DNA of 64,000 bases from Myxococcota bacterium (GCA_036149055.1 JAYZQJ010000004.1:1-64000), one strand, 5' to 3'; positions 47,005 to 63,702 are shown, counted from the first letter of the stretch. A program made the numbers and translations. Notes: generated by a model not told the origin, from the letters alone.

Positions 47005-47241
47005 ATGGCCAAGTTCACCGACAAGCAGGGCCAGTACCTCGCCTTCATCCACGCCTACACGAAGCTCAACCGACGACCGCCGGCTGAGTCCGACATGCAG
47101 CGCTTCTTCGAGGTGACGCCACCTACCGTTCACCGCATGGTCGTCGAGCTCGAGAAGCGCGGCCTCATCCAGCGGCAGCCTGGCAAAGCGCGAACCATCC
47201 AGGTCCTCGTGCCGACCGAGGAAATTCCGGCGCTCCAGTGA
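47005..47241 (+). CDS. Small LexA/MarR-like winged-HTH protein (IS630 passenger)
   Basis: FT.KQGQYLAFI..Y......PPAE.DMQR.F.VTPP.VH.M...LE..GLI.R.PG.AR.I. Confidence 0.85.
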   Translation: MAKFTDKQGQYLAFIHAYTKLNRRPPAESDMQRFFEVTPPTVHRMVVELEKRGLIQRQPGKARTIQVLVPTEEIPALQ

Positions 47242-48144
47242 GTCGTCAATCGATCACAATCACTGCGGCCGTGTACTAGGCCGCGCGGACTACGGGCGCT
47301 TGCCGCCGCGGGCTCCCGCCGCCGCCGTTCGCTGCCGCTGCCGCCGTTCGCTGCCGCTGCCGCCGCTCGCTGCCGCCGCTCGCTCCCGCTACAAGCATCC
47401 GCAACCCGACTCGGAGTCGGAGCGGCCACTCGGAGCCGCAGTCGCCACTCGCAGCCGCCACTCGCAGCCGCCGCGGCGTCGACGCATCTCTGCCGAATCG
47501 AGCTCTGCCGCATCGAATGGGGCTTGCGCTCTCTCGAAACGGCAGAGCTCGTGACTCGCGCCGTCCCGGCCCGCCGCGATCGCGGACGGGAGGCGCCTCG
47601 CCCACTTCTCGAAGCGGCGGTCCAGAGCGCTTGCGCTTCTCGTGGCTGGCGCGAGGTCGACGAGCCGTTGATCGAGGCCCGAAAGGAGCGATCCGGCGCC
47701 GAGTCCGAGTCCGGACCGAGCGGGCGTCCGATCCGCACGTGGTCGCCCCTCGCCCCGCGGCGGCTTGCTACCGCCATTCGCCGCCGCTCGCTGCCGAATC
47801 GAGCTCTGCCGAATCGAGCTCTGCCTAATCGAACGGGGCTTGCTCTCTCTCGAAACGGCAGAGCTCGCGCGTGCGATCGCCCGATCCGAATCGGAGCCCG
47901 ATCCGCACCCGGTCGCCCCTCGCATGCGCGCGCCGCCGCCGCTCGGTACCGTAGCCGTCGCCCGGCACCAGTGCCGCCGTTCGGTACCGCGGCCGCCGCT
48001 GACCACCGTCCTCGAGACCGCCGCCAGGCCCCCGCCTCTGCCGTCGCGCGCGCTGGTTCCGCCCGCCGCTCGCTGCCCCGGGCGCAGGTTGCTCCCAGGC
48101 CGCCTCCCTCGCCGGCCCCAGATCGGCTCACCGGCGACGCCGGG

Positions 48145-48855
48145 TCAGGCGGCGCGGCGGGCCGCGGGACCGGGGCGACGACCCGGGTCGATCCGGCCTC
48201 CGGCGCGACGCCAGCCGACGGACAGGAGCCACGTCTCCGCGCGCTCGGCGGGGGAGGCGCGGGAGGGCAACATCGAGGGCGTAGTACGCACCGCACGCGT
48301 CCAGCCGTCGAAGAAGAGCCCCGAGCTGAGCGGGTCCACCCAGGTGGGATCGGCGGCGGCGACCCCGTGGCGGCGGGCGTTGCCGAGCACGTAGGCGATC
48401 GCATTCCGGACGGCCCGGGGCGTGGTGAGCGCGCGGCTGTGGTAGCGGTCGGCGAAGACGGTGCCCTTGCGACCCATCACCCGGTTGATCATGCGCGCGA
48501 TGCGCACGCTCAACCCCTGCATGCCGCGCGCGAGGAGCTCCGCGTCCTCCGCCTCGACCAGGAGATGAACGTGATTCCGCTGGATGGAGAAGTGCACGAT
48601 GCGCATCCCGCCGCGGGCGTTCGCCTTCGCGATGATCTCCCACAGCCGCGTCGACAGCCGCCGGCCGCGCAGGCCCCAGATGCCGCGCATGACCTTCGAC
48701 GTGACCAGCACCGGGTGCCGCGCCGCGAAGCGCTCCCGCGTGGTGTGAGGGACGCCCGCCTTCTCTCCCTTGGGCTTGCGCCCGGCGCCCTTCCGCGCGC
48801 CGCCGTGCCTGAACAACAGGAGCGTGCCTTGCTCTGACTTCCTCTTCTTGCGCAT
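48145..48855 (-). CDS. REP-associated tyrosine transposase (RAYT / TnpA-REP, Y1 HUH endonuclease)
   Basis: HUH motif SIQRNHVHLLVE; G.VF.DRYH; AIAYVLGN..RHG catalytic Tyr; DP.SS; basic HGGARKGAGRKP N-terminus; palindromic repeats on both sides. Confidence 0.85.
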   Translation of the reverse strand: MRKKRKSEQGTLLLFRHGGARKGAGRKPKGEKAGVPHTTRERFAARHPVLVTSKVMRGIWGLRGRRLSTRLWEIIAKANARGGMRIVHFSIQRNHVHLLVEAEDAELLARGMQGLSVRIARMINRVMGRKGTVFADRYHSRALTTPRAVRNAIAYVLGNARRHGVAAADPTWVDPLSSGLFFDGWTRAVRTTPSMLPSRASPAERAETWLLSVGWRRAGGRIDPGRRPGPAARRAA

Positions 48856-48913
48856 GCCCGCACGGACGGGGAGCGCTCGGCGCGACTGACGGAAATCGCA
48901 AGAAAAGATGCGG

Positions 48914-49200
48914 GAGCTCGATTCGGCAGAGACCGCCGCAGCCTCCAACGGGAAGCTCTGCCGATTCATCTGAGCGCGATTCGGCCCAGATCGACCGGGG
49001 GGGTCGAGCCCGGAAACTCTGCTGAATCATCCTCGACGGCGGAGAGCCGGCCGCAGATCTCGATTCAGCAGAGATCCCCGGAGCACGCTGAGCTCGACAG
49101 GCTCGGTACGGAGCATCCCGCTCTCGGCCGCGTGGGATGATTCGGCAGAGATGCCCCGCGGTCCCAGCGCCGAGCTGGGGCTCGAATCGGCGGAGATCCG
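48914..49200. repeat. REP-like repeats right of (upstream of) the RAYT
   Basis: GATTCGGCAGAG exact at 48920 and 49139; variants at 48956, 48978, 49017, 49062, 49184. Confidence 0.85.
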
Positions 49201-49246
49201 CGTCCGGGGACGCGTCATTCCCCTGGGGTGACTACGTGTCCTGGAT

Positions 49247-50203
49247 GTGAAGGGCGCGCCTCGTACGGTTCTCGTGACCGGCGCCAGCACCGGGCTGGGG
49301 CTCGCGATCGCGCGGCGGCTGCTCGAGACGCGGCATCGGCTGATCCTGACCGCGCGCCCGGCTTCGCTGAGGCGCTTCGAGGCCGCGGGCGTGACCGAGT
49401 CCGAGCGGGTCCACGTGCGGGCGCTCGACGTGACCGACCCGGGCATGCGGCACCGGGTGATCGCCGAGGCGTACCACCGCTGGGGAGGCGTCGACGTGCT
49501 GATCAACAACGCCGGGGTCGCCTACCGGGCGGTGGTCGAGCACGTGGTCGAGGACGAGCGGCGCGAGCAGATGAGCGTGAACTTCAACGCGCCGATGGAG
49601 CTGGCGCGCCTGGTCCTGCCCGGGATGCGGGAGCGGCGCCGGGGACACATCCTCACCGTCAGCTCGGTCGGCGGCATGATGGCGATGCCGACGATGGCCG
49701 TGTACAGCGCGTCGAAGTTCGCGCTGGAGGGGGCCTGCGAGGCGCTCTGGTACGAGATCCGCCCGTGGAACGTGCGGGTCAGCCTGATCGAGCCGGGCTT
49801 CATCCGCTCTTCGTCGTTCGAGCGGGTCCGCTACACGCCGATGAGCCGGCGCTCCGAGGACGAGTCCGAGGAGCCGTACCACGCCCACTACGAGCACATG
49901 GGCCCGTTCATCGCCCGGATGATGCAGGGCTGGCTCGCGACCCCCGAGGAGAAGGTGGCCCGGGCGGTGGTGCGCACGATGCACCGCGCCGACCCCCCGC
50001 TCCGGGTGCTCGCCACCCTGGACGCGCGCCTCTTCGACGCGATGCGCCGCCTCCTCCCGCGGCGCCTCTATCACTGGCTCCTCTACCGCTCCTTACCCTC
50101 GATTTCGGACTGGGGTTCGCGGCCTCCCCCGGATTTTTCCGCTCGCCCCTTGCCCGAGCCCCCAAAAAGCCTCACAAAACCGAGTCCGGGCCAGGTCTCG
50201 TGA
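49247..50203 (+). CDS. Short-chain dehydrogenase/reductase
   Basis: TGASTGLG, NNAG, SSVGG, YSASK, EPG. Confidence 0.92.
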   Translation: MKGAPRTVLVTGASTGLGLAIARRLLETRHRLILTARPASLRRFEAAGVTESERVHVRALDVTDPGMRHRVIAEAYHRWGGVDVLINNAGVAYRAVVEHVVEDERREQMSVNFNAPMELARLVLPGMRERRRGHILTVSSVGGMMAMPTMAVYSASKFALEGACEALWYEIRPWNVRVSLIEPGFIRSSSFERVRYTPMSRRSEDESEEPYHAHYEHMGPFIARMMQGWLATPEEKVARAVVRTMHRADPPLRVLATLDARLFDAMRRLLPRRLYHWLLYRSLPSISDWGSRPPPDFSARPLPEPPKSLTKPSPGQVS

Positions 50204-50393
50204 GCTTTCTACGGCTTCGGCTTGCAAGCTCGAGTCCCGGCCTCAAGATCCGGCGTACCGCGCGACCGGAGCCCTGCGCCTGCGCAGGCTCCCGGGGGGA
50301 GGCAGCGTGGTCCGGGACGGGTGACACCCGACTCGACCTGGGCAGACACGAACGAACACCTCACTCCTCGCCGCGCACCCCCGAAACGATCCC

Positions 50394-51746
50394 ATGAAGA
50401 AGACGACTGCCACTGCCGAGCGCCGGCCGCGCGCTCGCACGGGCCGCAGCACCCGTGACCCCTTCGACCTCTACCTCGCCGGGCTGGGCGAGCTTCAGCC
50501 GCCGCTCGATCGCGCGGGTGAGGTCGCGGCCGCCACGCGCATCGAGGAGGCCGAGCGCGACTGCCTGGACTGCATCCTCGACAACGGCATCACCCTGCAG
50601 GAGCTCGCCACCTGGCAGCGCCGCTTCGAGGCCGAGGAGATCGACGTCCTCGGGGTCGCGCACCTGGGCCGCTACGAGGGGCCCGAGGGTCGCGAGGAGC
50701 TGAGCAAGAACCTCGAGAAGGCCGCCAAGATCGAGGCCCGCCTCGAGAAGATGTCGGGCTCCAAGCGGGGCACCGCGGCCGAGCGCCGCGTGCGTCGTGA
50801 CCGCGCCTGGGAGCAGCGGGGCAAGGCGGTCCGCCACCTCGGGCTGCACCGCGAGCGCATCCAGGACGTGGTCGCCCGCGTGCACCGCGAGCTGCGCGCC
50901 TTCGCCGCCGCCGACGGCCGCGAGGACGACCAGGCCATCGAGATCATCCGCCGCGCCGAGGACCGCCTCGGTCGCCGCCGCCCCGTGCTGCGTCGGCTGT
51001 GGCCGGAGCTCGACGCGAAGCGCCGCCGCCTCGAGGCGCGCCGCAACGCGCTCGCCGAGGCGAACCTCCGCCTCGTGGTGATGCTCGCCAAGGCCTACCG
51101 CGGCTCGGGCGTGCCGTTCCCGGACCTCGTCCAGGAGGGCAACCTCGGCCTCATGCGCGCGGTCGACAAGTTCGACCACCGCGTGGGGACTCGCTTCAGC
51201 ACCTACGCCACCTGGTGGATCCGGCAGAGCATCGCCCGCGAGGTGACGCGCCACGCCGAGACCGTCCGCGTGCCGTTCGGCATGACCGAGAAGCGCAAGC
51301 GGCTCCGCCGCGCCGAGCGCCAGCTCACCCAGCGCTTCGGGCGCGCGCCGACCGAGAAGGAGCTCGCCGAGGAGGTGGGCATGACGGTGGACAAGGTCCG
51401 CCGCTCGCTCGAGGCGACCACCCGCTCGGTCTCGATCCACGCCCCGATGGGTGAGGACGGGGACCGCAGCCTCGACGAGGTGCTCTGCGACGACGACGCC
51501 CAGCGCGTCGACGACGCGGTGATCGCCCGCGAGCGCGAGGGGACCGCCGAGCGGATCCTCTCGGTCCTCAGCGAGCGCGAGCAGTTCATCCTGCGCCGCC
51601 GCTTCGGGATGGACGGCAACAACGCCGACGGCCTCACGCTCCGCGAGATCGGCGAGGAGCTCAACCTCAGCCGCGAGCGGGTCCGCCAGCTCGAGGCGAT
51701 GGCCCTCGAGAAGCTCCGCGGCGCGCTGGCCCGCGAAGGCGCGTAA
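50394..51746 (+). CDS. RpoD/SigA-family sigma-70 factor lacking region 1.1 (group 2-like)
   Basis: DPFDLYL (region 1.2); ANLRLVV, DLVQEGNLGLMRAVDKFD, FSTYATWWIRQ; TLREIG..NLSRERVRQLE. Confidence 0.9.
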   Translation: MKKTTATAERRPRARTGRSTRDPFDLYLAGLGELQPPLDRAGEVAAATRIEEAERDCLDCILDNGITLQELATWQRRFEAEEIDVLGVAHLGRYEGPEGREELSKNLEKAAKIEARLEKMSGSKRGTAAERRVRRDRAWEQRGKAVRHLGLHRERIQDVVARVHRELRAFAAADGREDDQAIEIIRRAEDRLGRRRPVLRRLWPELDAKRRRLEARRNALAEANLRLVVMLAKAYRGSGVPFPDLVQEGNLGLMRAVDKFDHRVGTRFSTYATWWIRQSIAREVTRHAETVRVPFGMTEKRKRLRRAERQLTQRFGRAPTEKELAEEVGMTVDKVRRSLEATTRSVSIHAPMGEDGDRSLDEVLCDDDAQRVDDAVIAREREGTAERILSVLSEREQFILRRRFGMDGNNADGLTLREIGEELNLSRERVRQLEAMALEKLRGALAREGA

Positions 51747-51777
51747 CCGCCTACGCTCCCGAAACACCCGTCCGCAC

Positions 51778-51810
51778 CGACACCGCCGCCCCAACGGGTC
51801 GGCGGTGTCG
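51778..51810 (+). terminator. Stem-loop after the sigma gene
   Basis: CGACACCGCCG...CGGCGGTGTCG 11-bp stem; weak U tract. Confidence 0.55.
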
Positions 51811-51960
51811 CGCGTTCTACGCACCTGGTCCCCGGCAGGCCGCGAAACGTCCGAGGTATGGGGCTTGCACGCCTGTTCTTGCAGTCCTAACCCGAAACAG
51901 GCGCCGATTTCGTGCCCGCCCGCGATCGGTCCCGTAGATTGACGGCACGGGGGTATTTCG

Positions 51961-52344
51961 ATGACGACCTATCAGACACGAGAGCTGATCGCTTCGCACC
52001 ACGCGGAGCTCGACCGGCTCGCCATCGAGCTCCTCGAGCTCGGCAGTCGCGTGTCCTCGGACGAGCCGGACGTGAAGTCGCTCCGCGAGCGCGTGCGCGC
52101 CCTCGGGGCCCGGCTCCGCGCCCACCGCGCGGAGGAGTCCGCCGCCCTGCTCGCCGACGCCGGACGGGGCCGCGATCGCCTCGCCGCCCGCATGATGCGT
52201 CGCGCCGGCCCGGACGCGGTGGCCGAGATCGAGAAGGCGATCGCGCGCGCCGACGACGGGACTCCGCCGCTCGAGCTGGTGCGCGCCGCCCTCCAGGCCG
52301 CCCGGACCTGTCGCGCGAACCTCGACGCGCTCGCCCGGGACTGA
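51961..52344 (+). CDS. Small helical hypothetical protein (hemerythrin-like His pattern, weak)
   Basis: HHAEL, AHRAEE; helical composition. Confidence 0.55.
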   Translation: MTTYQTRELIASHHAELDRLAIELLELGSRVSSDEPDVKSLRERVRALGARLRAHRAEESAALLADAGRGRDRLAARMMRRAGPDAVAEIEKAIARADDGTPPLELVRAALQAARTCRANLDALARD

Positions 52345-52352
52345 GTTTTCTT

Positions 52353-52880
52353 GGAGGGTTTGGTGCAAACCCTCCCCCCATTGGGCAAAGCGCCAATGGG
52401 GCCCCCCTCCCGACTCCGTCGGCGCGTCGCGCTTCGCGCTCGCGCCGCGACCCCAGCGACGGGGCGCTGGGGGCCCTGCGGCTCGCGCTCGCGCTGCGCG
52501 CTCGCTGGCCGCCCGCTGCCGCGGGATCGACCACAGGAGGGGGTGGGGCGTCGGCTGACTTCGCTTCGCTCGTCGCCCGCCGGCTTCTCGGGTCAGTCGT
52601 CGCGGAAGCGGGCTTGGCCTCCCCCGGCGCCATTGCTTGCCGCCTCTCGCTGCACCGGCTCCGGACTCCGGGGCCTCGCTCGGCCCCGACCCCAGCGACG
52701 GGGCGCTGGGGGCCCTGCGGCTCGCGCTCGCGCTGCGCGCTCGCTGGCCGCCCGCTGCCGCGGGATCGAACACAGGTGGGGTGGCGCGTGGGGCACTTCG
52801 CTTCGCTCGTCGCCTGCCGTCGTCTCGGGTCAGTGCCGTGGAAGCGGGCGGGGGTGCCTCGGCGCCATTGTTTGCCACAG
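52353..52880 (+). repeat. Multi-hairpin dispersed repeat, copy 2, with internal 239-bp-period duplication
   Basis: 52353-52474 matches the reverse complement of 1-122; 52448-52530 is identical to 52687-52769, followed by diverged similarity. Confidence 0.9.
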
Positions 52881-52959
52881 CTCGAGTCTCCCGCCGGGAT
52901 CGGGCGCGCGTCCGCGTCCGCGGGCAGTGAGGCGCGATTCCGCGCTTACCTCCTGGGGC

Positions 52960-53946
52960 ATGAGAGTGTGCCCCCGATGCGGTTTCTCCGAAGCGTCCAG
53001 CCCGCGGCTGGTCTGCTTGCTCTGCGGCGCGGCGATGGAGGAGGAGCGGGAGCAGTGGGCCGGGACCGTCCTCGAGGACCGCTACCGGCTCGACGATCTC
53101 CTCGGCTCGGGCGGCATGGCCCGGGTGCACCGCGGCCTGGACCTCCAGTCGGGGCGGGTGGTCGCGATCAAGGTGCTCCGCCGCGAGCTGACCTACGACG
53201 CGACCTGGATCGAGCGCATGCGGCGCGAGGCCCGGGCGGCGGCCGCGTCGCGGCACCCGAACATCGTCGAGATCTTCGCCTTCGGTCAGACCCCCGACGG
53301 CGCGCCCTACATCGTGATGGAGCTGCTCGACGGAAAGCCGCTCCACCGCATCCTGGCCGAGTGCGGTCGGGTGCCGTGCGCCATCGCGACCCCGATCGCC
53401 GCGCAGATCGCCGAGGCGCTCGCCTGCACCCACCGGCTGGGCATCGCCCACCGCGACCTCAAGCCCGAGAACGTCTTCGTCCGGTGGGACCAGCACGGGG
53501 CGCCGCACGTGACCCTCGTCGACTTCGGGCTCTCGCGCATCCCCGAGGACACCCGGCTCACCGAGCCCGGCCAGGTCGTCGGCACCCCGCAGTACATGGC
53601 GCCCGAGCGCGCCTGGCACTTCGAGGCCGGCACCGCCGCCGACCTCTACTCCCTCGGCGTGGTGCTCTTCGAGATGGTCACCGGCCAGCTCCCGCTCCCG
53701 GCCGGCAGCCCCGCCGCGGTGGTGATGCGAGCGATGCACGAGGAGGCGCCCCACGCCCGCACGCTCCGGGCCGACATCCCGGCCGAGCTCGACCTGCTCA
53801 TCTCCCGCCTGCTCGAGCGGAACCCCGAGGATCGGCCGCCGACCGCCTCCGAGGTGGCCACCCGCCTCTGGAACATCGCCCGCCGCGAGCAGCTCATCGA
53901 GGCCGACAAAAACCAGGTCATTGCTCAAAAGACGGTTGACAGGTAA
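52960..53946 (+). CDS. Ser/Thr protein kinase with N-terminal zinc ribbon
   Basis: CPRC..CLLC; LGSGGMARV, VAIK, HRDLKPEN, DFG, GTPQYMAPE. Confidence 0.92.
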   Translation: MRVCPRCGFSEASSPRLVCLLCGAAMEEEREQWAGTVLEDRYRLDDLLGSGGMARVHRGLDLQSGRVVAIKVLRRELTYDATWIERMRREARAAAASRHPNIVEIFAFGQTPDGAPYIVMELLDGKPLHRILAECGRVPCAIATPIAAQIAEALACTHRLGIAHRDLKPENVFVRWDQHGAPHVTLVDFGLSRIPEDTRLTEPGQVVGTPQYMAPERAWHFEAGTAADLYSLGVVLFEMVTGQLPLPAGSPAAVVMRAMHEEAPHARTLRADIPAELDLLISRLLERNPEDRPPTASEVATRLWNIARREQLIEADKNQVIAQKTVDR

Positions 53947-53963
53947 TAAGTCCGATGTAAAAG
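53936..53963 (+). promoter_or_regulatory. Putative sigma70 promoter of the GntR operon
   Basis: TTGACA-N16-TAAAAG in an AT-rich patch, 7 nt before the GTG. Confidence 0.6.
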
Positions 53964-53970
53964 AAGCCCG

Positions 53971-54711
53971 GTGGCGGAGGGACGAAAGGCGGACCGGGTC
54001 GCGGACGATCTGCTGCGCAGCATCGTTCGCGGTGAGGTCGAGGTCGGCTCGCTCCTGCCCAAGGAGGCGGAGCTCGCCGAGCGCTACGGGGTGAACCGCT
54101 CGGTCGTCCGTGAGGCGATCAAGCTGCTCGAGGTCCACCGCCTCGTGCGCCCGATCCGGCGGCGCGGCACCGAGGTGCTCGATCCGATGCGGTCGGTCAG
54201 CCCCGAGGTGCTGCGGGCGATGATGACCCCGGCCTCGGGCCGGGTGGACCGCGAGGTCTTCCGCGACTTCCTCGAGATCCGGGCGTCGCTCGACGTGCAG
54301 ATGAGCACCCTGGCCGCGGCGCGGCGCACCGACGAGGACGTGGCGATCCTCGAGGGCCACCTCGCCCGGCTGAAGGACGCGCTGCACGACCGGGCTCGCT
54401 ACGACGTGTGCTCGGAGGCGCTGACCCGCGCGGTGGCCCGGGCGACCCACAACCGCATCTTCGAGATGCTGGTGTGGTGGAACCAGGAGGTCGCGCGCGA
54501 CCTCGGCGACATCTTCAGGACGGTGCGGCCGGCCAACGAGCCGCACCTCGCGGGGCTCTCGCTCCTCGTCGGGCTCATCCGGGACGGCGAGGTGGAGCAG
54601 GTGCGCACGCTCGTGGAGGCCTTCCACGACTGGGCCACCCCGAGGCTCCTGGCGGCCGCGGCGCTGTCCACCGGCGCGCCGCTCAGCGCAGTGATGGAGG
54701 GGATCACGTGA
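53971..54711 (+). CDS. GntR/FadR family transcriptional regulator
   Basis: LP.E.ELA..YGVNRSVVREA...L; FCD domain E.R..L, THN. Confidence 0.9.
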   Translation: MAEGRKADRVADDLLRSIVRGEVEVGSLLPKEAELAERYGVNRSVVREAIKLLEVHRLVRPIRRRGTEVLDPMRSVSPEVLRAMMTPASGRVDREVFRDFLEIRASLDVQMSTLAAARRTDEDVAILEGHLARLKDALHDRARYDVCSEALTRAVARATHNRIFEMLVWWNQEVARDLGDIFRTVRPANEPHLAGLSLLVGLIRDGEVEQVRTLVEAFHDWATPRLLAAAALSTGAPLSAVMEGIT

Positions 54712-56435
54712 TGCAGACGGAATCGGTCGAGCGAAGAGGCGAGGCGCCGCTCCGGCGCGCGGGCAAGGGGAGCCACCGCCGGGTGGGCGACGTGCACGTG
54801 CTGTCGCTGGCGGGGAGCGACCACGAGATGGGGCGCCAGCACGGCGAGCTGCTCGCGGACGAGATCCGGCGCGGGCCGATCCCGTACTACCGCCGCATCG
54901 TCGAGAAGCTCATGGGCAAGGGCAGCCTCGGGCCGGCGTCCAAGCTCGTCTGGCCGGCGCTGCAGACGACGCTCGGGCGACGCATCGCGAAGAACCTCCC
55001 GCCGCACGTGCGCGAGACGATCCGCGGCGTCGCCGAGGGCGCCGGACTCGACGTCCAGGCCTTCGTCGACGGCTGCACGATGCCCGACGCGATGATGTGG
55101 GTCGCCGCCCGCGCGATGCAGCTCAAGGGGCACGGTCCCGCGGTCGCGCACCGCGTCGCGCTCGGGCTCGGGTGCACCAGCGCGGTCGCCTGGGGCGACG
55201 CCACGGTCGACGGCAAGCTGCTGCACGCTCGCAACTTCGATTACCACGGCGTGGGCTGCTGGCCCTCGAACAAGGCCGTCCTCTTCCACGCGCCCGATCG
55301 CGGCCAGCGCTTCGTGTCGGTGGCGTCGGCCGGCGTCGCGCTCGGCGGCATCACCGCGATGAACGAGGCGGGGCTCACCCTCACCGTGCATCAGCACATG
55401 TTCACCGACCGCACCAAGCTCGGCGGCACGCCGATCGGGATCGTCGGCGACGAGGTGATGCGCGAGGCCCGCGATCTCGACGAGGCGGAGCGCATCCTCG
55501 GCCGGCACGTGCCGGTGGGCTGCTGGACCTACGTGGTGACCGACGGGAACGCGCGCGAGGTCCTCTGCTGGGAGGAGAACCCGGAGCGGCGCCGCGCCTT
55601 CCGGTTCCGCGAGGAGAGCACCTTCGGCTACGCCAACGTCTACCTCGACGAGGCGCTCGGTCGGAGCGAGGTGAACCTCTACGGCAGCTACTGGCGTCAC
55701 AACCAGGGGCGCCACGCGCGGGTGAACGCGCTCCTCGCCGAGCGCCGCGGGGCGCTCGATCCGCAGGGCATGGCCTCCATCCTCGCCGACACCGGCACCG
55801 GCGGCTGCCGCATCCGCGACTCGATCGCGATGGTGATGACCGTCGGCTCGGTGGTCTTCCGGCCCGAGGACGGGGCGCTCTGGGTCGGCACCGGCGAGGC
55901 GCCGACGAGCCGGGGGACCTTCGTGCCCTTCTCCCTCGCCGAGGGCGGCCACGATCCGTCCAAGGGCGAGCTGACGACCGGCGCGATCGAGGACGAGGGT
56001 GAGCGCGAGGCCTTCGAGCGCTTCCGCCAGAGCTACGTCGCCTACGTCGACGACGGCGACGTGTCGCGCGCCCACGCGCTGCTCCAGGAGGCCTGCGCGC
56101 TCGCGCCCTCCGAGCCGCTCTACCGCTCGCTCCGCGGCCTCTTCGCGCTCGAGCGGGGCGCGCTCGACGACGCCGAGGAGGCGTTCACCGAGGCGATCGA
56201 GCTCGGGCACGTCGACCCGGAGCGCCGCGCGAGCTTCCACCTGTGGCGCGGCCGCGCCCGGGACGCTGCGGGGGCGCGCGACGCCGCGGTCGAGGACTAT
56301 CGCTGGGCGCTCGGCTTCGTGGCCGATCCGCCGGTGCGCGCCGCGGCGCTGCGGGGCATGCGCCGCCCGTTCACCAGGAAACAGGCGCAGAGGATTCACG
56401 TGGACGTCGGGTTGGCCGACGTCGTCTCGCCGTGA
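54711..56435 (+). CDS. C45/acid-ceramidase-like Ntn hydrolase with C-terminal TPR-like region
   Basis: G|CTSAVAWGDATVDGKLLHARNFDY; TAMNEAGL; TGATG overlap with gntR. Confidence 0.8.
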   Translation: MQTESVERRGEAPLRRAGKGSHRRVGDVHVLSLAGSDHEMGRQHGELLADEIRRGPIPYYRRIVEKLMGKGSLGPASKLVWPALQTTLGRRIAKNLPPHVRETIRGVAEGAGLDVQAFVDGCTMPDAMMWVAARAMQLKGHGPAVAHRVALGLGCTSAVAWGDATVDGKLLHARNFDYHGVGCWPSNKAVLFHAPDRGQRFVSVASAGVALGGITAMNEAGLTLTVHQHMFTDRTKLGGTPIGIVGDEVMREARDLDEAERILGRHVPVGCWTYVVTDGNAREVLCWEENPERRRAFRFREESTFGYANVYLDEALGRSEVNLYGSYWRHNQGRHARVNALLAERRGALDPQGMASILADTGTGGCRIRDSIAMVMTVGSVVFRPEDGALWVGTGEAPTSRGTFVPFSLAEGGHDPSKGELTTGAIEDEGEREAFERFRQSYVAYVDDGDVSRAHALLQEACALAPSEPLYRSLRGLFALERGALDDAEEAFTEAIELGHVDPERRASFHLWRGRARDAAGARDAAVEDYRWALGFVADPPVRAAALRGMRRPFTRKQAQRIHVDVGLADVVSP

Positions 56436-56455
56436 GCGAGGGTAGGGGAGCGACG

Positions 56456-57886
56456 ATGAAGATTCCCGAGAAGGGCATGAGCCGAGACGAGGTGATGGCC
56501 GCGATGTCGCGCTACGCCGAGAAGGACACCGACTGGAGGAGCGGTCGGACCTTCGGCTACAGCTACGACGCCGGCCGCGACGCGGAGAAGGTGACGAAGG
56601 AGGCCTACGGGCGCTTCCTCTCGGAGAACGCGCTCGACCCGCGCGTCTACCCGAGCCTCGTGAAGTTCGAGACCGAGGTGGTCGGCATCTGCCGCACCCA
56701 CCTCCGCGGCGACGACGAGGTCGTCGGCACCTTCACCAGCGGCGGCACCGAGAGCTGCATGCTCGCGGTGAAGACCGCGCGCGACTGGGCCAAGGCGGAG
56801 AAGGGCGTCACCGCGCCCGAGATGATCCTGCCGATCACCGCCCACGCCGCGTTCCACAAGGGCGCGAGCTACTTCGGCGTGAAGGTGGTGCCGGTCGACG
56901 TCGACCCGCAGACCTTCGAGGCCGATCCGGCGGCGGTGAAGGCGGCGGTGAACGAGAACACCGTGCTCATCGTCGGGAGCGCGCCGAGCTACGCGCACGG
57001 CGTCATCGATCCCATCGTCGAGATGGGGAAGATCGCGCTAGAGCACGATGTGTTGCTCCACGTCGACGCCTGCATCGGCGGCTTCATGCTGCCGTACGTG
57101 AAGCGGCTGGGGCGTGAGCTGCCGGACTGGGACTTCGCGGTCCCGGGCGTGACGAGCATCAGCATGGACCTCCACAAGTACGCGTACTGCGCGAAGGGGG
57201 CCTCGGTGCTGATGATGAAGAACAAGGAGCTGCGTCAGCACCAGATCTTCGCGTGCGCCGCGTGGACCGGGTACAGCGTCGTGAACACCACGATGCAGAG
57301 CACCAAGAGCGGCGGCCCGATGGCCGCGGCCTGGGCGACGCTCCACCACATCGGCGACGCGGGCTACCTCGAGCTGACCCGCCGCGCGATGGACGCGACC
57401 GATCGCATCGCGGCCGGCGTGGAGTCCATCCCGGAGCTCCGCATGCTCGGGACCCCGGTGATGACCCTGCTCGCCTTCGCGAGCGACGAGGTGGACGTCT
57501 TCCACGTCGCCGACGAGATGAAGCTCCGCGGCTGGCTGATCGGCGCGCAGCTGGAGTACGGGCCGAGCCCGACCAACCTGCACCTCACCGTGGGCCCCAC
57601 CAACGACGAGAAGGCCGACGCGTTCGTGGCCGACCTCCGCGCGTCGGTGGAGGCGGCGAAGGCGCTCCCGAAGAGCGACCTGCCGGCCCAGATCCAGGCG
57701 GCGTTCGCGAACATGTCGCCCGAGGACATCTCGCCCGAGACGCTGAAGCAGATGCTCGCCATGGCCGGCGCGAGCGGCACGGAGCTGCCCGAGCGCGAGT
57801 CCGAGATCAACCACGTGCTCGACGCGCTCCCGCGCGCGCTGAACGAGAAGCTCCTCGTCGGCTACCTCAACGAGCTCTTCGCGTAG
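56456..57886 (+). CDS. Sphingosine-1-phosphate lyase-like PLP-dependent enzyme
   Basis: TSGGTES, HAAFHKG, GSAPSYAHGVIDPI, HVDACIGGF, SISMDLHKY. Confidence 0.85.
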   Translation: MKIPEKGMSRDEVMAAMSRYAEKDTDWRSGRTFGYSYDAGRDAEKVTKEAYGRFLSENALDPRVYPSLVKFETEVVGICRTHLRGDDEVVGTFTSGGTESCMLAVKTARDWAKAEKGVTAPEMILPITAHAAFHKGASYFGVKVVPVDVDPQTFEADPAAVKAAVNENTVLIVGSAPSYAHGVIDPIVEMGKIALEHDVLLHVDACIGGFMLPYVKRLGRELPDWDFAVPGVTSISMDLHKYAYCAKGASVLMMKNKELRQHQIFACAAWTGYSVVNTTMQSTKSGGPMAAAWATLHHIGDAGYLELTRRAMDATDRIAAGVESIPELRMLGTPVMTLLAFASDEVDVFHVADEMKLRGWLIGAQLEYGPSPTNLHLTVGPTNDEKADAFVADLRASVEAAKALPKSDLPAQIQAAFANMSPEDISPETLKQMLAMAGASGTELPERESEINHVLDALPRALNEKLLVGYLNELFA

Positions 57887-57922
57887 CGGGGAACTTCGGC
57901 GCCGGCCCCGTGTCGCAGCCGC

Positions 57923-58570
57923 ATGCGACGAAGCCTGCTGGTGCTCGCGCTCGGCCTCGCTCCCTCCCTGACGTTCGCGCCGGGGGGAGCGGCCGCGTGC
58001 TTCAACGAGATGGAGATCGAGCTCCGTGAGGAGTCGATCAAGACGCTGCGCGCCGAGCGCGCCCTCCGGAGCGGGCACCTGCGCCGGGCGTTTCGGCTGG
58101 CCGGGCGCACGCTCCGGGACCTCGAGCGGAACCCGGACGCGTCTCCGGGGCGCGTGCAGCACCTCGGCGCGCGGCTCCGGCGGGTCGTGGCGGTGAGCAC
58201 GGTGCGGCTCGGCGGCGCGGTGGATCGGCGGCGCTGGCGCACGCCGGGTCACGTGGAGGAGGCGGACCGGGCCGCGAGCCTCGAGTGGGCGGCGTCGACG
58301 CTGCGGGAGCTCGCCCGCAGCCGCGAGCCGATCGACGAGGCGCGCTACGCCGAGGCGCTCGTCCGGCTCGGTCGGCACGCGGAGGCGGCGCGCATCCTGA
58401 GCCGGCTCGCCGAGGACGACGTGATGCCCGACGCCTACGGCTACGCGGCGCTCGCCACCGCCCAGGACGCGCTCGGGCGTGACGGCGACCGCGACCGGGC
58501 CGGCCAGGCGTGCCGCGCGATGACCCGCCGGGAGCAGCGCGGGATTTGCCCGTCCTTCGGCGAGAGCTGA
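57923..58570 (+). CDS. Exported TPR-like hypothetical protein
   Basis: Signal peptide ending AAA-CFNE; helical repeats. Confidence 0.65.
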   Translation: MRRSLLVLALGLAPSLTFAPGGAAACFNEMEIELREESIKTLRAERALRSGHLRRAFRLAGRTLRDLERNPDASPGRVQHLGARLRRVVAVSTVRLGGAVDRRRWRTPGHVEEADRAASLEWAASTLRELARSREPIDEARYAEALVRLGRHAEAARILSRLAEDDVMPDAYGYAALATAQDALGRDGDRDRAGQACRAMTRREQRGICPSFGES

Positions 58571-59757
58571 TCGCGCTGCTGCTGCTGGCCTGCGAGGCGA
58601 GCGCGGCCCCCGCGGCCCCGGCGCCGCCCGCGGCTCCGCCCCCCGCTCCGTCCTTCGGAGACGCGGCGCGGGGGCGGGCGCTGCTCGAGCGCTTCGAGTG
58701 CCATCGCTGCCACGAGGGCACCGGGCTGGCCGAGCCGCCGCCGGAGCGCCGCTGCGTGGGGTGCCATCGCGACGTGGCCGCCGGGCGGGTCGAGGCGCCT
58801 CCCGAGGTGCTCGCCGGCTGGCGCGCGCATCTGCACAGCCTCCCGGACGCCCCGCACCTGGGGGGCGCCGCGCGCTTCGATCCCGCCTGGATCGCCGCCT
58901 ATCTCCAGCGCCCCGTCGATCTGCGCCCGCACCTGGAGGCGACGATGCCGCGCCTCGCGCTCGACGAGGTCGACGCCCGCGATCTGGCCGCCGCGCTCGC
59001 GCCGCCCCGCGCCCCGGTCGAGGCGGCCGGCGATCCGGCGCGCGGCCGGGCGCTGGTCGAGGCGCGCCCGTGCGGCCGATGTCACTCCGTCGGCGGCGCC
59101 CCGCTCGCGAGCCGCGGCGACCCGGGGCTGGACGGGCCGGCGTTCGCGCGCGCCCACCGGCTGGCGCCCGATCTCGCGTTCGCCGCGGCCCGGATGCCGG
59201 CGACGCTGATCGACTGGTTGACGGATCCGGCGGCCGTGCACGCCGAGACCGAGATGCCGCCGACCGGGCTCGACCGCGCCGAGGCCGCGCACGTGGCCGC
59301 GTGGCTCGCGACGGTGTCCCGTCCACCGCCGCCTCCGCCGCTGCCCGCTCGGCTGCCGCCCCTCGAGCGTGAGGTCGGCTGGGAGGAGCTGGACCGGGCG
59401 CTCTTCCACGACACCTGCTGGCACTGTCACTCCGACCCGGGCTACGCGATCGGCGACGGCGGGCCGGGCAACACCGGTGGCCTCGGCTTCGAGGGCCGGG
59501 GCCTCGACCTCGCGAGCTACGAGGCGCTGCGGAGCGGCTCGGTGCACGAGGGCCGCCGCCGCAGCGTGTTCCGCGAGGTCACCCTGGCCAACGGCGAGAC
59601 GCTCCCGTGGGTCGTCGCCACCCTGCGGGCCCGGCAGCTCGAGGAGGCGGGGCGCGATCCCGGAGACGTACGCGGCATGCCGCTCGGGCTGCCCGCCGTC
59701 TCGCCCGAGACCCTGCAGCTCCTCGAGACCTGGATCGCCCAGGGCCGGCGTCGCTGA
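58546..59757 (+). CDS. Tetraheme c-type cytochrome lipoprotein
   Basis: CHRCH, CVGCH, CGRCH, CWHCH; MP distal ligands; LLAC lipobox; start uncertain. Confidence 0.8.
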   Translation: MPVLRRELIALLLLACEASAAPAAPAPPAAPPPAPSFGDAARGRALLERFECHRCHEGTGLAEPPPERRCVGCHRDVAAGRVEAPPEVLAGWRAHLHSLPDAPHLGGAARFDPAWIAAYLQRPVDLRPHLEATMPRLALDEVDARDLAAALAPPRAPVEAAGDPARGRALVEARPCGRCHSVGGAPLASRGDPGLDGPAFARAHRLAPDLAFAAARMPATLIDWLTDPAAVHAETEMPPTGLDRAEAAHVAAWLATVSRPPPPPPLPARLPPLEREVGWEELDRALFHDTCWHCHSDPGYAIGDGGPGNTGGLGFEGRGLDLASYEALRSGSVHEGRRRSVFREVTLANGETLPWVVATLRARQLEEAGRDPGDVRGMPLGLPAVSPETLQLLETWIAQGRRR

Positions 59758-59809
59758 AGCACTCTTTCGGCGGTGGGCCGCGGGCGTGTACGATGTCGCC
59801 TCCCCCTCG

Positions 59810-62800
59810 ATGAGCAGCTTCGATCAGGTCCAGCTCGTCCTCGGTGCGCTGCGCGATCAGCTCCAGCGCTCGCCGGAGCTCTCCCGGGCGTTGCACGACG
59901 CCTGGCGGAGCGGGCGCTTCGAGTCCAGCGCGAGCCTGCCCGCCGACGCGATCGAGGCCGCCAACGGCGCCGACGCGGCCCTCCGGGAGTGGACCGCTTC
60001 CAGCCACGACCCGCAGGCGTTCCGCGGCGCCTTCGACGGCCCGGAGGCGGATCTCGTCTTCCTCTGGTGCGCCGCCAACGCCCCCCGCAGCGACGCGCGC
60101 CTCGCGCCGATCCTCGCCGCCGGGGCCCGGCACCCCGAGCACGGAGAGCGGGCGCTCTTCGTCGCCCGGAACCGCATCGTGCAGGGGCCGCTCGAGGACG
60201 CGCTCCGCTGCGCGCCGCTCCTCGGCTCGCTCGACCGCCCGGAGAGCTTCGACGCGGCCGCCCGCATGGAGATCCTGCTCTGGGAGGCGGGCTCGCGCGC
60301 GCTGCAGCTGCCGGAGCTGGGCAAGTGGATCTGGGGCGCGAGCGAGACCTTCGAGGCGGTGGTCGGCCACCCGGCGCGCGGCTCGCTGCGGGGCCGGGTG
60401 CTCGCCGCGCGCTCGCTGGAGGTGTCGGTGTGCGGCATGCCGCCGATGACCGATCCGCAGCTCGTCGGGCGCACGCTCCAGGCCCTGCAGCCGCTCCTCC
60501 TGCACCCGGAGCCGCTCGTCTGGATCCACGCGGCGCGCTCGTTCGGTCGGCTCGCCGGCGCGTTCGAGCCCCTCGAGGGCACGCTGCTCGACTGGGTGCA
60601 CGGCGCGACCCCGGTGCTCCGGCAGCGGGCGCTGACGGCGTTCGCCTCGCTCCCCGCCGAGCGCCTCATCTTCCTCGGGCATCAGCTCGAGGCGATCATC
60701 GACGCGCCGGAGAACGAGGACTGGGTGCTCGCGGCCGCGGCGGCGGCGACCCCCTATCTGCTGCACGAGCGGCCGGATCTCTGGCGCCGGCTCTGCGCGC
60801 GCATCGTCGACGGAGACGGCGGCGCGGTCGCGGCCCGAGCCCTGGCGCGCGGGCTGGCCACGCTCTGGCGGCGCGGTGAGCGCGAGGTGGTGGAGAAGCC
60901 CTGGCGGGATCTCCGGCAGCGCGCGCGGCACGCCCGGGTCGAGGGCGTGGACGAGTGGCGCCGCTGGCTCGAGACGATCGCGGTCACCGATCCGGTCGAC
61001 GACGCGGAGCGCGACCCGCTCGACATCGAGCTCGGCCTCGAGAACCTGGTCCGCCTCGCCGCGCAGTACGACGACGAGGAGGCCGACGCGCGGGCCGCGC
61101 GCTTCGCGGGCACGCTGGCCGCGACGTTCTCGGAGGCGCGCCGCATCGTGCTCGGCCCGGGCTCGCTCCGGCACCGCGCCTCGGCGATGAACGCCTTCGA
61201 GGGCTGCGCGCGCTCGCTCGCGCTCCGGCTCTGGGGCCCGATGCTCGCGACCCGGCCGCAGGGCGATCCGATCGCGGAGCCGAACCTCGAGGAGACGTGG
61301 GAGCTGGTGGCCCGCGCGCCCGCCGAGCTGCTCGACCTCGTGAAGGAGCGGCGCGGCGAGGGCAAGGCCGAGGACGGCTTCGACGTGGCCCTCGAGGTGC
61401 TCGCCCTGAAGATCGGCGGCTACGCGCTCGACGCCTGCGGGCAGGACAGCGACCTCGGCCCGGGCAGCGGGCCCACCGCGCACGAGACGTGCCGCTGGCT
61501 CCGCAAGCTCGAGGGGCTCGCCGACGGCTCCCGGGAGCTGCCCGCGCCGCTCGAGTCCGCCCTGAGCGCGCTCTTCTGGCGCCTCGTCGACACCACGCGC
61601 GGCACCGCCCTCGGCGAGGTCGACGACGTCGCCTGGCTCGGGCCGTTCGCGGCGTGGTGGGCGCTCGTCATCGACCGGCCGGCCATCCTGCAGCGGCTCG
61701 CCACCGCGCTGCCGATGATCGCCGACGGCGCCCTGGAGCGCTGCTGCGAGCTCGCGGACAAGACGCGCAAGACGCTCTCCTCGGGGCAGGCCAACGGCGC
61801 GTGGGGCGAGACGGTGCGCGAGAGCCTCGCGGAGCTGAAGGCGGCCGACACCGAGCTCGGCGCGTCGCTCCTCGACCTCGCCCGCGCGCTCGACGAGTTC
61901 AAGGAGGCCAAGGGGCCGCTGCCCGATCTCGAAGCGCTGTGCCTGCAGCTGGTCATCGCGGCCGAGCGCCTCCAGGCCGCGCTCGCCGATCCGGTGCGCG
62001 CGCTCCACACCGCCGAGCACGACGGAGACGGCTCCGGCCAGCGCCAGGAGAACGCCCCGCGCATGGCCTCGGTCGTGGCCCGCGCGATCCGTCGCCGCGA
62101 GCCGGCGCTGCTCGAGGTGTGGTTCGCCTCGCTCGGGCCGATGACCTCGTCGCTCGTCGAGGCGTCGGTCAGCGCGGCGATGAAGCGCACGCCGCCGCCG
62201 CCGCCCACCAAGCAGAAGGCCAAGAAGAAGATCGTCGGCTACGAGCTGATCAAGCCGCTCGGCGAGGGCGGCATCGGCAGCGTGTGGCTCGTGCGCAAGC
62301 CGGGCGCCGATCGCTTCTTCGTGCTCAAGATCCCGAAGGCCGACGTGCTCGCGAGCGCGACCGAGTCCGAGCGCGAGAAGATCCTCGCCTCGTTCCACGA
62401 CGAGGCGCGCGCGCTCGCCGGGCTCTACCACCCCAACGTCGCCAACATCATCGACCGCGGCGTCGAGGACGACGTCCCCTACCTCGTGCTCGAGTACCTG
62501 ATCGGCGCCGACCTCAAGATGTACTCGAGCGCCCGGCCGATGACCCTCTTCGAGCTGCGCAAGGTCGTCGGCGAGAGCTGCGCCGGGCTGACCGCGCTCC
62601 ACGGCGCGGGCCTGGTGCACAGGGACATCAAGCCCGCCAACCTCTGGCTGCGGCTCCCGCTCGCGGGCGGCCAGAAGTTCGACCCCGACAAGCACCGCGA
62701 CCCCGCCGCCGCTCAGCCGCTGGCCACGGTGATCATCGACTTCGGCATGGTCCGCGCGACCCGGGTCGAGGCCGACGTGGGCGGCAAGTTCGTCGCCGGG

Positions 62801-63100
62801 ACGCCGGGGTACATCGCGCCCGAGCAGGTGCTCGACCCGGTGGAGCTCGACGGGCGCGCCGACGTCTACGCGCTCGCCGGCACCCTCTACAACGTCACCA
62901 CCGGGCGCACCTTCTTCGACGAGATCGAGGATCCGCGTCAGCGCATCGTGGCCCACATGCGCGAGGATCCGCTCGAGAACGCCGACCTCTCGAGCTACCC
63001 GGCCGCGCTCGTGAAGCTGATGCGCGCCGCCACCGCCCGGGAGTGGAAGGACCGCCCCACGCCGCTCGAGTTCGGGCGCGCCTTCGCGGAGCTGATTTGA
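59810..63100 (+). CDS. Large Ser/Thr kinase with ~800-aa helical N-terminal region and C-terminal kinase domain
   Basis: LGEGGIGSV, VLK, HRDIKPAN, DFG, GTPGYIAPE, DVYAL. Confidence 0.88.
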   Translation: MSSFDQVQLVLGALRDQLQRSPELSRALHDAWRSGRFESSASLPADAIEAANGADAALREWTASSHDPQAFRGAFDGPEADLVFLWCAANAPRSDARLAPILAAGARHPEHGERALFVARNRIVQGPLEDALRCAPLLGSLDRPESFDAAARMEILLWEAGSRALQLPELGKWIWGASETFEAVVGHPARGSLRGRVLAARSLEVSVCGMPPMTDPQLVGRTLQALQPLLLHPEPLVWIHAARSFGRLAGAFEPLEGTLLDWVHGATPVLRQRALTAFASLPAERLIFLGHQLEAIIDAPENEDWVLAAAAAATPYLLHERPDLWRRLCARIVDGDGGAVAARALARGLATLWRRGEREVVEKPWRDLRQRARHARVEGVDEWRRWLETIAVTDPVDDAERDPLDIELGLENLVRLAAQYDDEEADARAARFAGTLAATFSEARRIVLGPGSLRHRASAMNAFEGCARSLALRLWGPMLATRPQGDPIAEPNLEETWELVARAPAELLDLVKERRGEGKAEDGFDVALEVLALKIGGYALDACGQDSDLGPGSGPTAHETCRWLRKLEGLADGSRELPAPLESALSALFWRLVDTTRGTALGEVDDVAWLGPFAAWWALVIDRPAILQRLATALPMIADGALERCCELADKTRKTLSSGQANGAWGETVRESLAELKAADTELGASLLDLARALDEFKEAKGPLPDLEALCLQLVIAAERLQAALADPVRALHTAEHDGDGSGQRQENAPRMASVVARAIRRREPALLEVWFASLGPMTSSLVEASVSAAMKRTPPPPPTKQKAKKKIVGYELIKPLGEGGIGSVWLVRKPGADRFFVLKIPKADVLASATESEREKILASFHDEARALAGLYHPNVANIIDRGVEDDVPYLVLEYLIGADLKMYSSARPMTLFELRKVVGESCAGLTALHGAGLVHRDIKPANLWLRLPLAGGQKFDPDKHRDPAAAQPLATVIIDFGMVRATRVEADVGGKFVAGTPGYIAPEQVLDPVELDGRADVYALAGTLYNVTTGRTFFDEIEDPRQRIVAHMREDPLENADLSSYPAALVKLMRAATAREWKDRPTPLEFGRAFAELI

Positions 63101-63702
63101 GCCGCGCGGCGGCCCTGCTGCCGTTGCTGACGCTGGCGCTCGCGTCCGCGGCCAGCGCGCAAGGCGTCCCGTCTCCGCCCGCCCGCTACGGCGCCGAGGG
63201 AAGCGCGCCGCCGGCCGCTCGAGGCGGGCTCGACACACCCCGCGGCTACCAGGCAGCCCCGCCGCGGGAGTCCGAGGTCACCGTCGTGGCCTGGGGCGAG
63301 ACCGAGCTCCGGCTGCACCTCCGCTCGCTCGACGGCGGATCGGCGCCCGCGCCCTGCACCGCGCCTTGCGCTCTCACGCTGGCGCCCGGCCGCTACGTGA
63401 TGGAGGTCCAGCCGCGGGGCGGGGGCCCGTTCACCGCCGACGAGAGCCCGCAGTACTTCGGGGTCGGCCCGCACGTGATGCAGCTCAGCTACGACCGCCG
63501 CAGCGGGCTGAGAGCGCTGGGCTGGGTCTTCTTCTCGATGGCCGCGACCGCGCTCGCGCTCACCTTCCCCTTCGGGCCGATCATCGGCGCGGTCATCGGC
63601 GCGCCGATCGCCGCCGCGCTCCTGATCCCCTGGCTCCCGCTCGCGCTCCTGCGCGACTCGGTGCACGCGCAGCTCACGCCGGTGCCGCTCTTCCGTCCGT
63701 AG
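63097..63702 (+). CDS. Exported protein with CTAPC motif and C-terminal TMs
   Basis: TTG start overlapping the kinase stop; signal peptide; resembles 25354-25923. Confidence 0.65.
   Translation: MSRAAALLPLLTLALASAASAQGVPSPPARYGAEGSAPPAARGGLDTPRGYQAAPPRESEVTVVAWGETELRLHLRSLDGGSAPAPCTAPCALTLAPGRYVMEVQPRGGGPFTADESPQYFGVGPHVMQLSYDRRSGLRALGWVFFSMAATALALTFPFGPIIGAVIGAPIAAALLIPWLPLALLRDSVHAQLTPVPLFRP

Follow-up and report, generated by a model that had tools for sequence, protein, structure and literature searches.

The 64,000-nucleotide stretch of Myxococcota bacterium DNA studied here (GCA_036149055.1, JAYZQJ010000004.1:1-64000), which we call the window, carries on its plus strand, at positions 53971 to 57886, three genes that encode a GntR-family regulator, an N-terminal nucleophile (Ntn) hydrolase of peptidase family C45 with a tetratricopeptide repeat (TPR) tail, and a pyridoxal 5'-phosphate (PLP)-dependent enzyme related to the sphingosine-1-phosphate (S1P) lyases (SPLs). 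Our analysis suggests that this trio probably degrades some amide-linked compound other than that of the classical sphingolipid route. The reading that we favor, with moderate confidence, is a GntR-controlled two-enzyme catabolic module in which an amide would first be hydrolyzed and the non-phosphorylated amine set free by this step would then be cleaved or decarboxylated by the PLP enzyme. In such a module, the C45 enzyme would cleave itself between Gly154 and Cys155, hydrolyze an amide bond, and release a product that carries a free primary amino group. The SPL-family enzyme would then take up this amine as an external aldimine and break a bond beside the amino carbon, by SPL-like retro-aldol cleavage or by decarboxylation like that of the group II enzymes, while the GntR protein would regulate the genes of both enzymes. 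We infer co-transcription, the order and type of the reactions, and regulation by GntR from the sequence. An initial annotation of the locus had proposed a sphingolipid catabolic operon; what stands of that proposal is the operon-like layout and an amidase that would feed an SPL-like enzyme, as indicated by gene fusions and recurrent adjacency.

Since this region of the window is 72% GC, genes were told from overlapping open reading frames (ORFs) by the GC content of their third codon positions (GC3). The ORFs of the regulator (53971-54711, 246 aa), the C45 hydrolase (54711-56435, 574 aa), and the SPL-like enzyme (56456-57886, 476 aa) have GC3 values of 0.96, 0.96, and 0.98, respectively, while the frames that overlap them range from 0.59 to 0.77, a contrast that identifies all three as real genes. 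The ATG of the C45 gene at 54711 shares one base with the TGA stop codon of the GntR gene (54709-54711), and GGAGGGG lies 8-9 nt upstream of it; the ATG of the SPL-like gene at 56456 is found 20 nt beyond the C45 stop codon, with GGGGAG ahead as a ribosome-binding site. The three closely spaced, co-directional genes of the initial annotation are thus borne out by the ORFs, their GC3, the one-base overlap, and the 20-nt gap. According to its Pfam domains, a winged-helix GntR domain (PF00392, residues 7-69, 5.8e-17) and an FCD domain (PF07729, residues 100-217, 4.8e-09), the regulator belongs to the FadR/FCD subfamily of the GntR family.

SPL (EC 4.1.2.27) catalyzes the retro-aldol cleavage of S1P into a fatty aldehyde and phosphoethanolamine. 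The PLP enzyme of the trio matches Pyridoxal_deC (PF00282, 1.2e-19), and by sequence it is far closer to validated SPLs than to the decarboxylase MfnA or glutamate decarboxylase (GAD). In a phmmer search against the PDB, StSPL, the SPL of Symbiobacterium thermophilum (3MAD), was recovered at 9.8e-104 over residues 2-410, and the human, yeast, and Burkholderia enzymes at 1e-86, 3.7e-86, and 3.5e-84, whereas MfnA was found at 3.7e-30 and GAD at 1e-20 or weaker. The bit score against StSPL (350) is about three times that against the MfnA structure (108), and the protein scores 233 bits on the NCBIfam model of MfnA, under the cut-off of 299.4. With the SPLs as a group (StSPL, human SGPL1, yeast Dpl1p, and Burkholderia S1PL2021) it shares the fold, the family, and the PLP lysine, and with StSPL it also shares the PLP-phosphate ligands (GT, H), the ring-nitrogen Asp, the stacking His, and the equivalents of Tyr105, Asn126, and Lys317; unlike StSPL, it has no N-terminal extension and begins at StSPL residue 70.

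According to a review of SPL structures (PMC10243590), StSPL binds PLP through K311, G168, T169, H310, D274, H201, and S353, and the phosphate or phosphoethanolamine head group through Y105, N126, H129, S353, A103, and K317. The PLP residues K311, G168, T169, H310, D274, and H201 are conserved both in the alignment with 3MAD and in 30 SPL-like sequences that we took from 41 related genomes. The window protein keeps Lys241 (K311 of StSPL), Lys247 (K317), Tyr37 (Y105), and Asn58 (N126), but its pocket has Asp61 in place of His129, Tyr35 in place of Ala103, Thr283 in place of Ser353, and Lys284 in place of Arg354. Two fungal SPLs recovered in a protein search retain the A-Y-N-H...S-R pattern, as does StSPL. 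The fold and the PLP residues are therefore those of an S1P lyase, while the pocket for the substrate phosphate is not; the “S1P-lyase motif set” seen in the initial annotation holds for the PLP lysine and the PLP-binding residues and fails at the phosphate-binding His. In a BLASTP alignment with E. coli GadB (23% identity), N-A-L-D aligns with N-W-I-D of GadB, which places Asp61 at the GadB Asp, and Lys247 aligns with a Leu. The enzyme thus has in common with the group II decarboxylases (GadB and the archaeal MfnA) the family PF00282, this Asp, and a partial score on the MfnA model, and differs from them in its low identity to GadB, its 108 bits against the MfnA structure, and the SPL-type “HKYxYxAKG” lysine. 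Judged by these residues, it is not a canonical SPL, but an overall SPL-like enzyme whose head-group pocket contains one decarboxylase-like residue. We refer to the subgroup with such a pocket (Asp at the position of His129, along with Tyr for Ala103 and Lys for Arg354) as D-type.

The rebuilding of the S1P-phosphate pocket at three positions (Asp for His129, Tyr for Ala103, and Lys for Arg354) suggests that the substrate is most likely not a phosphomonoester, and that a kinase step would be unneeded. Two kinds of candidate substrate are kept, N-acylated amino alcohols (lipids of the sphingoid type) and amino acids that are N-acylated or bound in a peptide. A lyase reaction is suggested by the threefold difference in bit score and the retained SPL-type Lys; a decarboxylase reaction, by Asp61 and by two archaeal D-type proteins that are the best matches to the MfnA model in their genomes, at 248-277 bits for a cut-off of 299.4. 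The same residues bear on the classical route, in which the hydrolase would be a ceramidase, the kinase would be encoded elsewhere, and the PLP enzyme would be a true S1P lyase. Such a route is consistent with validated SPLs being the nearest relatives of the enzyme and with the retention of Y105, N126, K311, and K317. Furthermore, Burkholderia S1PLs are active at only ~44% identity to StSPL, according to excerpts of PMC5234717, so that the overall level of identity is, by itself, no argument against lyase activity here. The loss of the phosphate ligand His129 to Asp, together with the correlated changes A103Y and R354K, argues against this route.

The D-type pocket is not a one-off, and our sequence comparisons describe a coherent and widespread subgroup. 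At the position of His129, the 30 sequences from related genomes have Asp in 21 cases, Asn in seven, and Ser and His in one each. In the far set, which is formed by the best 80 of at least 599 matches in a scan of species-representative genomes, there are 64 Asp, 7 Asn, 3 Tyr, 3 Ser, 1 Ala, 1 His, and 1 unreadable residue. D-type proteins come from Myxococcota, Chloroflexota, Actinomycetota, Bacteroidota, Pseudomonadota, and archaea; the genome to which the window belongs has a single SPL-like gene, the member of the trio. A FastTree phylogeny of 106 SPL-like proteins (SH-like support, midpoint root) was built leaving out the validated SPLs and MfnA, and one H-type protein (L148) that nests among the D-type ones is the sole basis for placing true SPLs relative to the D-type group. 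In this tree, the Ser-type proteins L155, L159, and L168 form a clade of their own with Asn-type ones, and a TauE/SafE-type sulfite or sulfonate exporter is encoded directly downstream in two of these three loci. Retro-aldol cleavage of capnine, which is a sphingoid-base analogue of the sulfonate type, would yield taurine. The two archaeal proteins mentioned above (L184, G041:C1:521709-522869, and L183, G042:C8:3976-5142) are Asp-type, and the model for which each is the best match of its genome is that of the MfnA tyrosine/aspartate decarboxylase. Our literature searches on SPL in myxobacteria, bacterial SPL-ceramidase clusters, prokaryotic SPL homologues, and Sandaracinus sphingolipids yielded nothing on the D-type subgroup or on a Sandaracinaceae SPL, and one fused D-type homologue is named in its sources only “aminotransferase class V-fold PLP-dependent enzyme”.

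Among the longer relatives of the PLP enzyme, we found eight fusion proteins, each of which carries the YYND signature. P0124 (1035 aa) carries an Amidase domain (PF01425, residues 51-489) joined to an SPL-like domain, P0125 (847 aa) carries an SPL-like domain joined to Creatininase (PF02633), and six clusters combine MFS_2 with an SPL-like domain (P0126-P0130 and P0137, with 36-52% identity to the window protein). No other observation speaks as strongly for a single pathway of both activities as the joining of the PLP enzyme to an amide hydrolase in one protein; nor is it obvious where a kinase would act between the two.

The neighborhoods of unfused genes follow the same pattern. Among 23 SPL-like loci of related genomes, a TetR gene lies upstream in 11, an M81/MlrC-type metallopeptidase gene directly downstream in seven and probably in two more, where an antisense frame was called, and a creatininase-family amidohydrolase gene downstream in three; the M81 gene of the window genome has no SPL-like neighbor. 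For the far loci, we scanned with Pfam 119 immediate neighbors within 600 nt, leaving out four ORFs of more than 1100 aa (L120:1870-5958, L141:1620-5942, L151:1911-5876, and L128:7449-10760). A named amide-hydrolase or peptidase-type gene is the immediate neighbor in 10 of the 80 loci, the families being a beta-lactamase-family serine hydrolase (one locus, L093), M19, M20, creatininase, penicillin amidase, C45, amidase-signature, and M81; three more loci adjoin DUF2817 or DUF885, which we take to be peptidase-like. The other neighbors include MFS_2 transporters (12), TetR regulators (6), PALP enzymes (3), and TauE-type exporters (3). In contrast to an SPL, the D-type enzymes are accompanied by amidases and MFS_2 transporters and not by sphingolipid genes. 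At four loci of Desulfobacterales and Spirochaetota metagenome-assembled genomes (MAGs), a family of ~455 aa with no Pfam match is encoded directly downstream of the D-type gene on the same strand (L111:4905-6266, L112:7526-8926, L123:1444-2808, and L126:7495-8889).

The hydrolase that would act first passes the cut-offs of two C45 profile hidden Markov models (HMMs), C45_proenzyme of NCBIfam (NF040521, 153.8 bits for a cut-off of 85, 6.7e-45) and AAT of Pfam (PF03417, 35 bits for a cut-off of 23.2). Its C45 part spans approximately residues 28-415 and is followed by a C-terminal TPR domain at about 430-560, with TPR matches, including TPR_16, at 444-498. Both features read from this protein in the initial annotation, the nucleophile motif 'GCTSAVAWGDATVDGKLLHARNFDY' and the TPR-like tail, are indeed present. 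The predicted nucleophile is Cys155, which follows Gly154, and self-cleavage is predicted between the two; across 29 homologues, G154, C155, T156, S157, R174, N175, and D177 do not vary. The closest C45 homologues carry source names of Sandaracinaceae; Sandaracinus amylolyticus, a cultivable member of this family, has the C45 homologue P0061. Our search of the literature on bacterial C45 enzymes returned nothing useful. In one related genome (G010), the C45 orthologue (L023/L026, G010:C2:774290-775971) is matched in two pieces with a change of frame near residue 157, just past the nucleophile Cys, which would be either a frameshift or an assembly error.

Since a phmmer search of the hydrolase against the PDB gave no match at E <= 0.01, we used structure prediction. 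The AlphaFold2 (AF2) model has a pLDDT of 84.6 and a pTM of 0.87, with low pLDDT in the loop 142-152 that precedes G154-C155. The model has the alpha-beta-beta-alpha Ntn fold, and its best match is acyl-CoA:isopenicillin N acyltransferase (IAT, 2X1C; Foldseek E 3.3e-12, TMt 0.71), and the VIA comparison of the two gave a Z of 36.1 and an rmsd of 2.5 A over 332 aligned residues with 19% identity. Acid ceramidase (5U81, Z 29.0) and NAAA (6DXW, Z 28.2) come second, with 307-317 residues aligned and 13% identity, followed by cephalosporin acylases (Z ~24) and bile-salt hydrolases (~20.5). The profile and model evidence identifies the hydrolase as a member of peptidase family C45, the family of IAT-like autoproteolytic Ntn acyltransferases/hydrolases. 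It shares with IAT the C45 HMMs, the predicted Gly-Cys self-cleavage site, the CTS...RNxD motif, and the top structural match, and differs from it in being bacterial, in its C-terminal TPR domain, in its pairing with a GntR regulator, and in the lack of beta-lactam genes nearby. With acid ceramidase (ASAH1) and NAAA, both of family C89, it has in common an Ntn fold whose N-terminal subunit is helical and a similar Cys nucleophile motif.

The likeness to acid ceramidase and NAAA that had been noted for this protein therefore holds for the nucleophile region and the two-subunit fold, that is, at the level of fold and superfamily only, since IAT is clearly closer in the modeled structures and the family is C45. 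The comparison with acid ceramidase by structure prediction, which had been suggested as a check, likewise gave a kindred fold that ranks behind that of IAT. A Pfam scan of the hydrolase at E <= 0.01 found no ceramidase, NAAA (NAAA-beta), or CBAH family, and its identification as a ceramidase was not supported. For the classical route, the second-best rank of the ceramidase and NAAA folds is a point in favor, and the C45 assignment a point against; a shared fold, as judged from a model, shows no function.

The classical route would also need a kinase. No DAGK-type kinase was found among the Pfam-scanned window ORFs chosen from 47130-63702, and four DAGK_cat genes of the lipid-kinase type are found elsewhere in the window genome, a point in favor of this route. 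Regarding synthesis, the genome encodes six alpha-oxoamine synthase paralogues, one of which is Kbl and another of which is near the BioF cut-off; all six remain below the three cut-offs of NCBIfam for Spt (317.8 bits at best for a cut-off of 640, on models that cover other phyla). No confident serine palmitoyltransferase was thus found in the genome, which speaks against this route, although one may still be encoded there. A BioF-like synthase gene (G000:C185:23906-24985, 424.5 bits for a cut-off of 426.45) and a DAGK_cat gene (C185:39570-39923) lie ~15 kb apart on one contig. Taking into account the rebuilt phosphate pocket, the C45 family of the hydrolase, the rarity of the full trio described below, the occurrence of D-type enzymes next to peptidase-type ones in archaea and across many phyla, and their direct fusion to amidases, with no step left for a kinase, the path from ceramide through S1P to a lyase, as first proposed, is not upheld, and we regard classical sphingolipid catabolism as very unlikely at this locus.

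The conservation of the trio, which the initial annotation had put forward as a check, gave a divided answer. Orthologues of the C45-TPR protein, with at least 56% identity, are present in 20 of the 41 related genomes, the window's own counted, and the GntR gene lies directly upstream in all 20 loci. One of these (L016), like the D-type protein L030, comes from an unpublished genome (G023). An SPL-like gene follows the C45 gene in only five of them (G000, G001, G005, whose copy is truncated by the end of the contig, G010, and G018). Of 301 genomes sampled across the phylum, 37 carry a C45 homologue; GntR is adjacent in eight of the 29 loci listed besides the window's own, and the full trio occurs in one (L198). 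In all, an SPL-like gene adjoins C45 in 6/49 loci, and one extra trio, in a Polyangiaceae MAG (L105), was found from the SPL side. The genes flanking GntR-C45 vary widely across genomes. Comparing 20/20 with 6/49, we consider GntR-C45 a stable unit and the SPL-like gene a lineage-specific addition; the full trio is rare, though not confined to the window genome.

These frequencies raise the possibility that adjacency does not reflect a shared pathway, the GntR-C45/TPR unit being self-contained and the SPL-like gene having been inserted in a few lineages as a lone amino-acid decarboxylase of the group II type. We regard this as a possible explanation, although less probable than the module. It would account for the 43 of 49 C45 loci without a PLP gene and their highly variable flanks, and the C45-linked SPL-like proteins fall in two separate places on the tree, which requires two gains or losses. 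A decarboxylase would also fit the identity of Asp61 with the residue of GadB at the aligned position, the 233 bits on the MfnA model, and the two archaeal genomes whose best match to that model is a D-type protein. On the other hand, the shared strand and the 20-nt gap fit a single transcript, the same trio recurs in a distant branch of SPL-like proteins (L105 and L198), and D-type enzymes are repeatedly found beside amide hydrolases or fused to them. The bit score to true SPLs, three times that to MfnA, and the Lys at the K317 position, where GadB has Leu, are likewise at odds with a simple decarboxylase.

Several observations weigh against the two-step module that we favor. No SPL-like gene adjoins C45 in 15 of the 20 loci of related genomes or in 28 of the 29 of the phylum sample, and the persistence of GntR-C45 in these genomes indicates that the C45 enzyme does not depend on adjacency to the PLP enzyme. 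Reciprocally, in genomes that do not have the GntR-C45/SPL-like pairing, the SPL-like gene pairs with other amidases. The adjacency to amidases in 13 of the 80 far loci is a raw count, uncorrected for background, and genomes that are related cannot be taken as independent cases. Some of the fusions could be gene-calling errors, most clusters having one or two members and P0126 having eight. Finally, the retained Lys247, Tyr37, and Asn58 have equivalents that also touch the phosphate in StSPL, and an anionic head group may still be accommodated.

A broader proposal, which we put forward as speculative and rather unlikely, is that the D-type enzymes form a widespread class acting directly on non-phosphorylated amines, such as free sphingoid bases, which would be cleaved into a fatty aldehyde and ethanolamine. 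Together with interchangeable amide hydrolases (C45, M81, creatininase-type, M20, M19, amidase-signature, and penicillin-amidase-type) and MFS_2 transporters, they would carry out a kinase-independent breakdown of N-acylated amino-alcohol lipids such as ceramides, the window locus being the GntR-regulated C45 version. It is important to note that D-type proteins may be labeled S1P lyases or decarboxylases by similarity, and that the rebuilt pocket and the repeated linkage to amide hydrolases and MFS_2 mark a large bacterial and archaeal subgroup with a probably different chemistry. Knowledge of the substrate would establish a two-step catabolic route that is new, and would reveal how the active site of an SPL-type enzyme can be retuned; if that substrate were a sphingoid lipid, non-pathogenic soil and sediment microbes would be consuming sphingolipids without a kinase.

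Directly 5' of the GntR start, an AT-rich intergenic stretch (53936-53970, plus strand) contains TTGACA and TAAAAG separated by 16 nt and is, as read from the sequence, a candidate promoter or operator of the unit. A consensus scan of 51700-59000 returned no promoter-like sites and one terminator-like site (1.4 expected) inside the upstream kinase gene, and is uninformative in DNA of 72% GC; it missed the above pair because the second hexamer does not have the final T. The trio sits inside a longer run of genes on the plus strand, formed upstream by a sigma-70 gene (50394-51746) and a Ser/Thr kinase gene (52351-53946), and downstream by genes for a small TPR-like protein (57923-58570), a cytochrome c (58510-59757), and a large kinase (59786-63100). 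Among the relatives compared, this wider run is common only to the same-genus genome G001. About 5 kb upstream of the trio, an ORF on the minus strand (48145-48969) matches an IS200-like Y1 transposase (PF01797, 3.1e-08). A sigma-70-type gene is found a few genes away from GntR-C45 not only in the window but also in four relatives' loci (L060, L062, L063, and L068); the intervening genes vary, and the recurrence looks like a remnant of an older synteny.

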